Assembly (NCBI RefSeq): GCF_018977255.1 | Contig: NW_024704769.1 | Location: 4,154,001-4,218,000 of the forward strand | Origin: Callorhinchus milii | Taxonomy: Eukaryota | Reading direction: 5' to 3' | DNA length: 64,000 nt | In this document: one piece after another, positions 50,913-58,675 of the stretch | How positions within the stretch are numbered: position 1 is the stretch's first letter | How the letters are laid out: the number at the start of each line of letters is the position of its first letter | Program-made: the position numbers and the translations under genes | The notes under the pieces: model-generated | Told to the model about the DNA's origin: nothing | Databases searched by the model: none | What the model saw: only the letters and a program-made list of their open reading frames with translations

Positions 50913-53900
50913 ATGCTGGACCGAGACATTGGGTGGGTACAGGACTTGTATACAGCGTCTGTTGTTGGCATTACGTTATTTAATTTAATTCATGAACTAA
51001 TATTCCCTCTTCTTAATCCCCTTTTCCTACATACATCCTGGCTGCCCGAAATGGAGCCAGGATTAGAGGAAGACTATTCAGTGCCTTCTTGAGGGGAACT
51101 GATAAAACAACAACAACTTGCATTTATATAGCGCTCTTCACGCCGGATGGAGTCTCGGATCGCTTGAAAACTCCCCTGTAGATTGCAACTCTTGTCAGTT
51201 GAGATTTTAGCATCCGGTGGTTAAGATGACCGAAGGCACAGTCTTGAGACAGACCTTGAAGAAGGCAAAGGGACTCCAGGATGCAGTTGCAGGGAATGGG
51301 GACAGATAGGCTGAACGCCCCACTGCTGATGGTGGGGTGTACGGGGCGGGAGACATGGAAACAGGCAATTTGGGGCCCCTTATACCTTGGCTTCTTTCTG
51401 CCAACTGACAACACATGATCTTATTACGCAGGAAAAATTAACATCACTACTTTTTCTTCATTTATAGTCCGACCCCATCCTATCCTCCCACCTACCCGGA
51501 GCCAAGTATTGGGTAAGGAATTTGTTTGCACTGTCTCCCGTTAGCTACGGCTCTTATTCTCCATACCCCAAGCCTCCACACCAATATACAGAAAACTGCT
51601 GATAACTCAACCCTGGCTTAACTTGTCACTGCCACTTAGGTCATCATTGCTGTCAATATCCCACAAAATGTACAGTTGATTCACTTCTGTGAAGCGCTTT
51701 GAGACGTTTCGAAGACGTGATAAGGCGCTATATCAAATGCAAGGATTATTATTCATAGAATTTTACAGTATAGAAGGAGGCCATTCGGCCCATCAAGTCT
51801 GTGCTGGCTCTTTGAATGGAGCAATTAATGTCAATCCCACTTCCCAGCCCTTTCCCCATAACCCTGCAAACCCGTCTGGTGTATTTTCCTAAGGTAACTT
51901 CAAAACCGGTTTGATTCCATGGTGGGAATCGCCTACTGTAGAGATCTTGCTGCAGGTCAGACTATCCTCAGAAATGTTAATCCTCTCTCTCTCTCCTCTC
52001 TACCTCTCTGCTGTTACAGGAGACGCACACCCTGCATGTTACAGCCAGAATACAGGATCTATGAACTCAACAAGCGACTGCAGAATTGGACCGAGGTGAG
52101 ACTTGTATTGCTCCAGCATCCACAAAATCCAGCTGATCCAAAACTCTGCTGTCCGCACACTAACCATACTAAGCTCCATCCCCCCATCACACCAGTTCTA
52201 GTCAGGCTCCACTGGCTCCCTATCACACTCGTTTTCAAATTCCTTCATGCCCTGGCACCTCCTTACCTCTCCGATATGCTTCCCCCATAATCTGCTGCCT
52301 CCGCTCAACTGGCTTTGGCCTCCTATATGTCTCTAGTGCCCTCCGTTCCACCACGTGGTAGCTGCACTTTCAGCCACTACACCCGGAAACTCTGGAACAC
52401 TCGTCCTCTATCCCTCTGCCTTCCTCCTTCACTCTCGTGCTCCGTCACTATCAAGCGCTCTGTGATGCTGCGGGAGGAGTGCTGCGTAAATGCAAGTTGT
52501 TGTTAAAAAGCGTAAAGGGAAGTGTTGTTTGATGGCTGTAACTTCTTATCAATGTGTTCTCCCAGGAATGTGACAACCTCTGGTGGGACGCTTTCACTGC
52601 TGAGTTTTTTGAAGATGACGCAATATTAACGGTGGCCTGTTGTCTGGAAGATGGGCCCAAGAGATACAGTGAGTTAGTTTATTGTTAGTGCTGTTCATCT
52701 TCAGAGTGAAAGTCTCAGTCACTATATAATAATCCTCTTAATCAGTCTGGCTCAGTCCGTAGCGCTCTCTCTCAACTCTGAGGCAGAAGGTTATACCTTC
52801 AAGCCCCCACATCGGGCCATGGAATTCATATAGTCTAAGTTGATACTCCAATGCAATGCTGTATTAATGGAGGTGCTGTCCTTTGGATGAGATGTTAAAC
52901 CGAGCTCCCCATCTGCCTGTTCACGTGGAGGTTAAAGATCCCATGGCACTGTTCGAAAAGAGAAGAGAGTTTCTCCCTCCCTCACAATAAATCACTCATT
53001 CACTTCAAGGTTGTTTGTGGGACGTCGCTGTGCGCAAAAATGGCTGCATATTCACCCACAAAACACACAGTTAATCCGCTTTACAGTACATCTTGCAAAG
53101 CGCTTTGAGATGTCCTCTTCACACCAAAGGCGCTGTACGAAAGTTTTATTACTCATGACAATGATCTTCTTCTTCTCTAAAGCAATTGGCCGGACCCTTA
53201 TCCCCCGGTATTTCCGCAGCATCTTTGACGGGGGAGCAACAGATCTGTACTTTAACCTGCGGCACTCGAAGGAACTGTTCCACGGTAACCTAGTGATCCT
53301 GGACTGTGAGCAGAGCAGTATGGTGTCCCTACACAGCAAACCCATCTTCACCAAGGTAGGCCCCACCCACCCACCGAGTGAAAAGCAGGCAGTCCCACAA
53401 CTCACAGCAGCATTCAGGCTCCGTGACCCTCTCACCCCCACCCTCCAGAGGATAGAGTTCAAAATCCTCACCTTCAGAGCCCTCCATGGCTTTGTTCCTC
53501 CCTGCCTCTGTGACCTGCTAACGTCATTATCAACCTCATCGCTCAGCGGGATCCGGCCTGTTTCACGTCCCCCAACCGGCCTGCGCCATTGGCGTCGGCC
53601 CTTCAGCCTCTCTGCCCCCACCCTTTGGAACTCCATCCCACAGTCCCTCCTCCTCGCCCACTCCCTTACCTCCTTCAAAGCGCGTCTCAAGACCCTCCTC
53701 ATTGACTGTGCTTTCGACTACCTTCCTACCCGTGCCCTCCACCCTCCTGATCCCAACCCCCAGCTTGGGTCTAAGTCCCTGGCATTTGGTTCAAACGTGG
53801 CTTTAGACCAAGTCTGTGCTACCTTGGTTCAGATCAAAAGAAAATGCTGTAAATGGCCAGCAGAGCCTGAATCCTCTGACTGAGCTCCATCACTGGCTTC

Positions 53901-56900: not shown

Positions 56901-58675
56901 TTTGAAAGAGCTGCCAATATCCTCACTAACTTATCTGCCGCAAACCAGGACGTCCAGTTTATCGCCTTATTTCTAACCAGGGTTGGTCAACCCCTGTCCC
57001 AATCAACCATTGGTCTCTTACTCCAAGTCCATAAGATTCCAATCTTCCCCTCACTACACTCTCCCAGCTGTGAGTTTAACTTCAACACTTTTATTTCCAA
57101 TGTCCCAAATGCTTGTGTTTATACCACTGATCTTCTGGTCTCAACTCACTGACCTGACTGCAGTTCAGTGAATCAAAACAGGACATCAATAGAGAGATGT
57201 CACCAGCTTTTTATTTGACTGAGCCGGACACTGAGCGAATCATTTGCATTTGAACAGGTTCTATTTTTTTCTCTGTAGGGTCTCCAGTCGCTATAACTTA
57301 TTGCGCCACTACCTCCTCATCCAGGAGAGAGAGTGGTGCGTGCCTGGGTCTGTGCTCCTCACTGCTTCATCAATGTCCAATGTCATTGGATGACCAGCAG
57401 ACAGGAAGGTGTGTGCTTGTGTGTGGGGGAGATTGGGCCAGCCAAGCTTTCCTCCCCCGAGATAGAGCAAAATGCTTCATCTGGCAGCTGAGAGCAGCAA
57501 TCCTGTCTGTGCAGGGAGGTGAGTGATTGTAGAAACCTAGAAACAGGAGGAGGCCATCCAGCCCCTCGAGCCTGTTCCACCATTCTATTAGATCATGGCT
57601 GATCTGTACCTCAACTCCAATTGCCTGCCTTTGCCCCGAATCCCTTGATACCCTGACCAAACACACATCTATCCACCTCAGTCTGGACAATGTGAATGGA
57701 TCCAGCCATAATCCACAGCCTTTTGAGGGAGAGAGTTCCAGATTCCCACCGGCCTTTTGGTGGAAAAAATGCTTCTGTTCACTGCCAAATGGCCCGGCTC
57801 TAATTGTGAGCTGAAGCCCCTTGTTCTGGATTCTTCCACTAAAGGAAATAGTGTCTCTGTAGCTGCCCTTTCGAATCTCTTTATTATTTTAAAAACCTCA
57901 ATCAGATCAGCCCCCAGCCTTCTAAACTCAAGGGAATACAGACCCTCGAATCCTCGTAATTTAACCCTTTAAGACCTGGTATCATTCTGGCGAATCTGCC
58001 TGCACCCCCTGAAGAGCTAATATCGGTCAAGGCTGGAATTTAAACTTGAGAACCGCAGAGAGAGAGAGAGTCCCATTGCTCTATCACCGGGATTGCAAGC
58101 TCAAGTCTAACACTGCCCGACTGTTAGACAGCAGCACAACACTTCCCAACACATCCACAGGTCAATTTGAATTGCAATTGATGCAGGTACAAGGATGAAC
58201 TAGAGTTGTTTTTAAGCACCAGGATAAGGTTAGTTAACTCAACACTGACCATTCCTTCCCATAAAAAAATACTGCCACAAGGTCAAGGACTTTTAAAAAT
58301 CACACGGGTAGAAAGATTTGCCAGGTTTGAGGCTGTTGGGAGTATTTTGTGACTGGACCCTGGGACATGTGGCCGAGGTGGATGGAGCAATGATTTACTG
58401 TTGTGTTGTGTGCTGTGGTTTAATGACTGCGCCCCCACTTATTGTAGGATGTTATGGTGGTGGGTGAACCGGCTCTAATGGGTGGGGAATTCGGTGACGA
58501 GGATGAACGGTTGATCACTCGGTTAGAGAACGCCCAGTTTGAGGCGGCCAGCGGTATCGATGATGAAGATGACTTCAATAACTCGCCAACCTTGGGAAGT
58601 GGCAGCCCTTGGAGCAATAAAGCACCATCCAGCCAGGAGAGCAAGTCTGAGAAATCCACCTCCCAGGAATGCTAA
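50913..58675 (+). CDS. LIM-domain-binding protein of the LDB1/LDB2 (CLIM/Chip) family, divergent LDB1-like paralogue, about 369-371 aa
   Basis: Exons: 50913-50932 (MLDRDIG), 51468-51512, 52020-52095 ([15 protein letters not shown]), 52566-52668 ([10 protein letters not shown]...EDGPKRY), 53183-53355, 53920-54042, 54532-54615, 55119-55242 ([20 protein letters not shown]), 55474-55607/55613 (KRRKRK NLS), 58448-58675 ([31 protein letters not shown]-interaction domain). In frame throughout. Confidence 0.95.
52745..53150 (+). mobile_element. Deu-domain-type tRNA SINE in an LDB intron
   Basis: tRNA-like head ggctcagtccgtagcgctctc...ctctgaggcagaagg, then gtgctgtcctttggatgagatgttaaaccgag...aaagatcccatggcact, then the shared L2-like tail. 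Confidence 0.7.
57530..58015 (-). mobile_element. CR1-type LINE 3' fragment in the last LDB intron
   Basis: Reverse complement of the 33400-33872 and 26870-27210 CR1 sequence. Confidence 0.75.

Follow-up and report, generated by a model that had tools for sequence, protein, structure and literature searches.

Enhancer complexes of the LIM-homeodomain, blood and Wnt systems have a dosage-sensitive core in common, LDB1 and LDB2, and a survey of bony vertebrates lists, in the part available, these two genes only. Of four paralogous loci described in bony vertebrates, one bears Ldb1 and one Ldb2; in the available part of that paper no Ldb is shown at the Prom2-Kcnip3 locus, which is reported as the sister of the Ldb1-bearing locus (PMC2446394). 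The published tables, as far as available, place KCNIP3 and KCNIP2 in adjacent quads on bird chromosomes 22 and 6 (PMC8040251) and assign the alpha role to GGA6 and the matching beta role to GGA22 (table 3 of PMC10115646); beta segments are reported to show more gene loss and faster evolution. The available part of PMC10115646 also counts 19 ohnologues that chondrichthyans have retained and bony fishes have not, naming wnt6b and cspg5 among the retained genes. Here we describe an LDB gene on the + strand at 50913 to 58675 of a 64,000-nucleotide stretch (the window) of the genome of the chimaera Callorhinchus milii (NCBI RefSeq GCF_018977255.1, contig NW_024704769.1, positions 4,154,001 to 4,218,000). 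It is a genuine third LDB of vertebrates and, most likely, LDB1's sister on the beta subgenome, separated from it by the second genome duplication.

Three LDB loci and their phylogeny

The gene has ten coding exons and nine introns, all GT-AG, and its joined reading frame of 1116 nucleotides runs unbroken through 371 amino acids and a stop codon, in agreement with an earlier note on this DNA, made from the letters alone, which had placed an intact LDB gene at these coordinates. The protein is identical to a database entry (P0081, 'LIM domain-binding protein 1-like', Callorhinchus milii), matches PDB 6TYD (E 1e-128) and combines the N-terminal LIM_bind and C-terminal LID domains of the LDB/Chip family (Pfam PF01803, 83 bits; PF17916, 43.5 bits; both above the cut-off).

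Genome searches with the LCCD exon and the LID exon matched the same three loci, on contigs C28 (the window), C7 and C1 (three of five and three of seven candidates, respectively), and all four matches of a Pfam model search fell at these loci. The C7 gene is LDB1 (over residues 23-250 it shares 95% identity with the mammalian protein); its neighbours are OGA on one side and HPS6 on the other, and exons further out resemble a gene we take to be ARMH3. The C1 gene matches LDB2 proteins and is much larger than the window copy. Because separate LDB1 and LDB2 loci coexist in the genome, as the earlier note's proposal of a third gene implied, a simple translocation of either is excluded. The window protein, which does not lie beside HPS6 and ARMH3, has none of 12 LDB1-diagnostic and none of 12 LDB2-type diagnostic residues and nests in neither orthologue group, the note's 'neither LDB1 nor LDB2' thus being borne out by the trees and the approximately unbiased (AU) tests. 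Its dimerisation domain shows 74% identity to LDB1 and 70% to LDB2, compared with 94% between true chimaera and mammalian orthologues. The LCCD (residues 201-250) is 98% identical to both LDB1 and LDB2; the LID (297-330) reaches 85-88% to the LDB1 and LDB2 of the same genome, compared with 97% between those two, and carries two clade-specific changes, so that the note's 'nearly invariant' fits the LCCD and not the LID.

In a 32-row tree, from which 21 of 53 rows had been dropped as partial, mispredicted or redundant, the third-LDB clade (100/100) was sister to LDB1 (100/99); chimaera LDB1 grouped with bony-vertebrate LDB1, and the split between the third LDB and LDB1 therefore predates that between sharks and bony vertebrates. 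A 25-row tree of 308 columns, with isoform-variable ends trimmed, cleaner outgroups and the amphioxus and scorpion models left out (they look internally repeated), again recovered the clade (100/99) as sister to all jawed-vertebrate LDB1 (99/98), and chimaera LDB1 with that of bony vertebrates (100/98). Both trees used a mixture model. Explicit-constraint AU tests (LG+F+G4, trimmed alignment, 20 rows) preferred the LDB1 pairing (resampling of estimated log-likelihoods (RELL) 0.91) and rejected a grouping of LDB1 with LDB2 (p 0.014) as well as an origin by duplication within cartilaginous fishes alone, whether from LDB1 (p 0.021) or from LDB2 (p 3e-5); they repeated an earlier run in which two constrained trees had equal likelihood and which had given p 0.0009 for the cartilaginous-only LDB1 duplicate and p 0.018 for a position sister to LDB2. 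Trees and AU tests together place the split before the jawed-vertebrate radiation, as for an ohnologue from whole-genome duplication.

The mixture of LDB1-like and LDB2-like residues that had drawn attention to the gene is real in its shared residues and needs another explanation. Fourteen sites agree with LDB2 against LDB1 (10 ancestral, 2 derived) and 16 with LDB1 (7 derived, 8 ancestral); given this polarity, the mixing is ancestral retention rather than chimerism, in a gene that is specifically LDB1's sister. The LDB1-like start also occurs in shark LDB2 and hagfish LDB and is for that reason ancestral; both first-exon types are likely ancestral. The motifs quoted in the earlier note are in place, within an exon or, across junctions, in the joined frame, and several residues it called 'unique' or 'LDB1-like' proved to be chimaera-only.

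Two side observations concern these residues. Chimaera and shark LDB2 and hagfish LDB have isoforms (P0201, P0171 and P0054) with the start usually considered LDB1-type, and there are 14 chimaera-only changes where sharks and rays differ; in the region 53183-54615 of the window, the chimaera's own changes include Arg169 to Gly.

Synteny and distribution

Each of the three LDB genes is followed on the same strand by a prominin gene, at about 7 kb for the window gene, 15 kb for LDB1 and 108 kb for LDB2; the first exon of the prominin gene after the window gene lies 1.5 kb beyond the window end. Four KCNIP genes are present in the genome (on C28, C7, C1 and C13), one on each LDB contig, and that about 40 kb downstream of the window gene is nearest to calsenilin/KCNIP3 in both exons tested. 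PurA, IL1, Sec7 and PAX family genes follow further downstream on C28. The gene is thus part of a multi-gene block with paralogues on other chromosomes (LDB-prominin at three of three loci, KCNIP on all three contigs), and the sister pairing of the best trees (99-100) matches the known second-round pairing. It fills the empty LDB cell of the published four-fold paralogon table. Taken together, trees, AU tests and paralogon synteny support the earlier suggestion of a surviving whole-genome-duplication paralogue.

The same suggestion had placed the gene at a '7p13-equivalent' locus, which describes the YKT6 side only, the informative neighbours being PROM2-KCNIP3 downstream. Upstream of the gene stands YKT6, head to head, followed by an NPC1-family gene and a DEAD-box helicase, which we presume, as we do the human band positions, to be NPC1L1 and DDX56; this side belongs to the same small chromosome and is less diagnostic than the prominin-KCNIP3 side. 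No LDB remnant was seen in 50 kb around the fourth KCNIP, nor ahead of the fourth prominin, on whose upstream side the contig extends for roughly 16 kb.

Under the preferred history, a first duplication would have turned an ancestral LDB-prominin-KCNIP block into LDB1-type and LDB2-type blocks and a second would have doubled the LDB1-type block; of the resulting pair, the copy on the beta chromosome, which is prone to gene loss and of the type of bird chromosome 22, would have been kept beside PROM2-KCNIP3 in cartilaginous fishes. Orthologues were found in 18 named species, of which ten are sharks, seven rays and one a chimaera (names in the main orthologue cluster come from 15 of its 105 members), and the window protein is 88-90% identical to the aligned orthologues of other species. 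Among the matches listed in a region search, nine clusters at 88-99% came from cartilaginous fishes only and were followed by vertebrates at no more than 76%. Diagnostic sites assign 32 of the 326 proteins fetched to the third-LDB clade, each of them carrying the name of a cartilaginous fish; another 139 representatives included no protein of this type, and an exon-5 search (77 of 81 candidates listed) held no bony-vertebrate member. Atlas clusters resolved the family level only. On these protein comparisons, covering the best 120 of 848 and the best 120 of 732 matches, the gene was likely lost in bony vertebrates. One representative at 50% identity (P0363), with five of seven shared derived sites, was considered as a bony-vertebrate member and set aside, since its N-terminus is that of LDB1 and it resembles an LDB1 in decay.

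Functional residues and alternative readings

Twenty-one of 22 functional positions defined in the literature (further sources, in their available parts: PMC6800368, PMC10287724, PMC7269912 and PMC13504347) are invariant in seven clade members. They include the SSBP patch (Y81, I83, L87 and R90), three LCCD helix-6 residues (in a numbering that we mapped from fly Chip), six Pygo contacts with the essential arginine, and the three disease-variant arginines together with the LID threonine; four of the five polar partners of these arginines are also kept in all seven. By sequence, the LCCD with its lateral SSBP patch and the Pygo NPF contacts of an LDB/Chip protein are thus in place. Because 21 of the 22 positions are kept, the third LDB likely functions as an ordinary LDB scaffold and, given the history above, we have good confidence in the following mechanism: the C-terminal LID would bind LIM-homeodomain and LMO proteins, the LCCD and lateral patch would bind SSBP dimers and make up the NPF pocket for Pygo, and dimerisation through the N-terminal domain would bridge enhancers and promoters, the third LDB adding LDB dose or mixed dimers with modestly altered coactivator contacts. 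The earlier note's suggestion that the protein may dimerise differently finds no support here: the residues of known importance to the dimer fold are conserved. A homodimer prediction for residues 20-200 scored 0.01, giving no verdict, and an AlphaFold model of the window protein (mean predicted local distance difference test 42) was too poor for use.

At 15 sites the clade has a derived residue and LDB1 and LDB2 the ancestral one; 13 of these sites lie in the dimerisation domain, two in the LID and none in the LCCD. These changes allow a second, rather unlikely, functional reading with the same origin, in which the protein would still bind its LIM and SSBP partners but its altered helix 4/5 apex would have lost the recruitment of FOG-type coactivators, so that it would loop or compete without activating. 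In the available part of PMC4066399, LDB1 residues 173-192 are needed for activation and FOG1 recruitment, not for looping; at 173, 179, 185, 192 and 193 the clade matches neither LDB1 nor LDB2, most strikingly at the last two, at the end of this region, where every one of the 23 comparison rows has Lys192 and Asn193, and its LID is changed as well, at 305 and 325. Nine of 70 positions at 67-136 are, however, also clade-specific, so that the apex may not be singled out; 179 and 185 vary among outgroups, and the matching of the published numbering to the window protein is ours. It is thus a doubtful, if conceivable, proposal that a third LDB with the same LIM-homeodomain/LMO, SSBP and Pygo partners would, through its changed apex and LID, uncouple looping from activation or shift partner choice in mixed dimers. 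If it were true, the gene would be a natural separation-of-function LDB that bony vertebrates discarded.

Several points weigh against the reading that we prefer, namely a second-duplication sister of LDB1 acting as an ordinary scaffold. Position 59 (LDB1 Thr95, a partner of Arg121 and Arg193) is Ala in three of the seven members. The AU test on the trimmed alignment did not reject a position sister to LDB2 (p 0.093, RELL 0.07), cyclostome LDB genes have no firm placement in the trees and, with that placement open, a date at the second duplication does not follow from the tree by itself. The KCNIP quartet agrees weakly (4:1:1 sites, bootstrap 73), the synteny was seen in the chimaera and not around the shark and ray orthologues, and the bony-vertebrate loss draws on the best matches of protein searches. 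The sequencing runs with spliced contigs described below are RNA only by guess, none being on record as such. Finally, the chimaera copy has a higher rate of change than LDB1 (32:11 sites, p 0.001) and may be under relaxed constraint; shark and skate copies are not significantly faster (p 0.07-0.22).

Among other origins, a segmental or tandem duplication of the LDB1 region before the shark/bony split, outside any whole-genome duplication, is compatible with trees that show the order of splits only and with the open cyclostome placement. We consider it improbable: the neighbours belong to a four-fold KCNIP series on four contigs, a single paralogon for which the available literature gives this pairing, and Pax, Sec7 and prominin family genes share the block. 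Still less probable is a missing sister of LDB2 relocated to the window chromosome, to which the 14 LDB2-like sites and the trimmed-alignment AU result would point; most of those sites are ancestral, the LDB1 pairing reaches 99-100 in two mixture-model trees, the other AU run gave p 0.018, and the intact LDB-prominin-KCNIP3 order requires no move. That the gene is a duplicate of recent date, a chimera, a copy in decay or an artefact of the assembly, as the faster chimaera rate and the 14 chimaera-only changes might suggest, is hardly credible in view of the intact frame and splice sites, the spliced contigs, orthologues in 17 other species and AU tests that reject a lineage-specific origin.

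Gene features and comparison with known systems

All ten coding exons lie on the + strand. The exon with the start codon (ATG at 50913) spans 50832..50932, its 5' part likely untranslated, with start and donor taken from the joined frame; an AG acceptor precedes it at 50830-50831, and an RNA-like contig aligns from 50831, its 43 preceding letters being non-contiguous with the genome. Exon 2 (51468..51512, 45 nucleotides) has a counterpart of equal length at the LDB1 locus and is optional, being missing in isoform P0082. Exons 3 (52020..52095) and 4 (52566..52668), both placed by the joined frame and contigs, begin and continue the dimerisation domain. Frame, contigs and alignment place exon 5 (53183..53355), with SSBP-facing patch residues 83, 87 and 90 and the majority of the clade-specific changes, and exon 6 (53920..54042), with more of the dimerisation domain and the beginning of the helix 4/5 apex. 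The rest of helix 4/5 (changes at 185, 192, 193 and 197) and the Pygo-contact residues 196-208 lie in exon 7 (54532..54615; frame and alignment), and the LCCD, with its SSBP-binding helices, in exon 8 (55119..55242; genome search, frame and contigs). Exon 9 (55474..55613; joined frame, isoforms P0081 and P0083) encodes a basic stretch that we take to be nuclear-localisation-like and has a second donor after 55607; contigs that stop at 55605-55608 fit the upstream donor. Exon 10 (58448..58675; joined frame, LID search and Pfam) holds the LIM-interaction domain and the stop codon. Exons 2-8 equal those of the LDB1 locus in length (seven of seven). No N-terminus homologous in frame to LDB1's longer one was seen in the window gene, and the 5' part of exon 1 showed no significant match to it (422 of 500 shuffles scored as high).

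In contigs from three of four sequencing runs, representing three studies, exon pieces follow one another at consecutive record coordinates without an intron. X9 has exons 1 to 6 (exon 2, of 45 letters, being deduced from the gap) and 8-9, X4 has exons 5-6 and exon 9, and X7 has exons 3-4 and 5-6. This splice evidence consists of contig pieces only, of which 32 were shown, and none of the pieces listed directly contains the join of exons 9 and 10. Because the genome searches gave intron-split loci only, a processed copy is an unlikely source of the spliced contigs.

The LDB gene and YKT6 face away from each other, and a CpG-rich stretch of about 100 bases appears to separate their starts. A likely shared promoter for YKT6 (-) and LDB (+) lies at 50012..50126, between two outward-facing donor consensus sites, with non-coding first exons of both genes inferred from the letters; it contains two words that we presume to be ETS-like. 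GC content at 49901-50200 is 72% with an observed/expected CpG ratio of 0.79, which hints that the LDB gene may be broadly expressed. The first coding exon of YKT6 is at 49266..49370 on the - strand (best matches YKT6, E 3e-12), and Pfam marks a synaptobrevin exon of the same gene at 46438-46539. A C-rich imperfect tandem repeat at 50200-50700 is likely in the first intron of the LDB gene. At the other end of the window (1498-5805) lie astacin-family protease exons and a long Ser/Thr/Pro-rich exon that ends in what we take to be a MAM-like start.

Beyond the window, an interleukin-1 family gene (L030:9461-9649) and a paired-box gene (L034:3827-4021) lie 70-105 kb away on the same contig. Extra prominin exons on the small unplaced contigs C604, C597 and C875 suggest a fourth prominin gene. 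The hagfish gene model P0060, which fuses LDB and ARMH3, suggests that these genes are neighbours in that animal too, as they are around LDB1. The interval from LDB1 to HPS6 on C7 contains a prominin gene (C7:27364243-27381760), where PMC2446394, in its available part, has a fish-only Prom3.

The gene is already present in RefSeq and UniRef as 'LDB1-like', and a skate annotation has a suffixed 'Ldb1-1'; automated pipelines have therefore likely met it. No description of a third LDB was found in the literature searched, most subscription papers being outside it. Shark and skate 'ldb1' annotations cover two genes, a warning for their use. A third LDB implies three LDB genes in the jawed-vertebrate ancestor, and its roughly 15 tolerated substitutions, in a domain 94% conserved between chimaera and mammal, are a variant set for separating looping from coactivator surfaces.

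Compared with LDB1 (NLI/CLIM2; PDB 6TYD, 8HIB), the window protein shares domain order, exon 2-8 lengths, 79% identity over residues 23-250, the SSBP patch, Pygo contacts and disease-variant arginines, and a prominin and a KCNIP gene downstream; it differs in its dimerisation domain (74%), in being found only in cartilaginous fishes and in the lack of a visible LDB1-type longer N-terminus. With LDB2 (CLIM1; PDB 9BPO) it shares the domains, a downstream prominin and 14 mostly ancestral residues, whereas LDB2 is a separate, larger gene on C1 with 70% identity in the dimerisation domain and is not its sister in the best trees. The teleost genes ldb1a/ldb1b and ldb2a/ldb2b, unlike the window gene, nest within LDB1 or LDB2. 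'LDB3' (ZASP/Cypher) is, in the available part of PMC2671401, a PDZ-LIM protein of other architecture, and the name is for that reason unsuitable here. The closest parallel in retention pattern, beta-type chromosome and faster rate is with the chondrichthyan-retained ohnologues of PMC10115646, as far as that source is available, and LDB may be on its list of 19.

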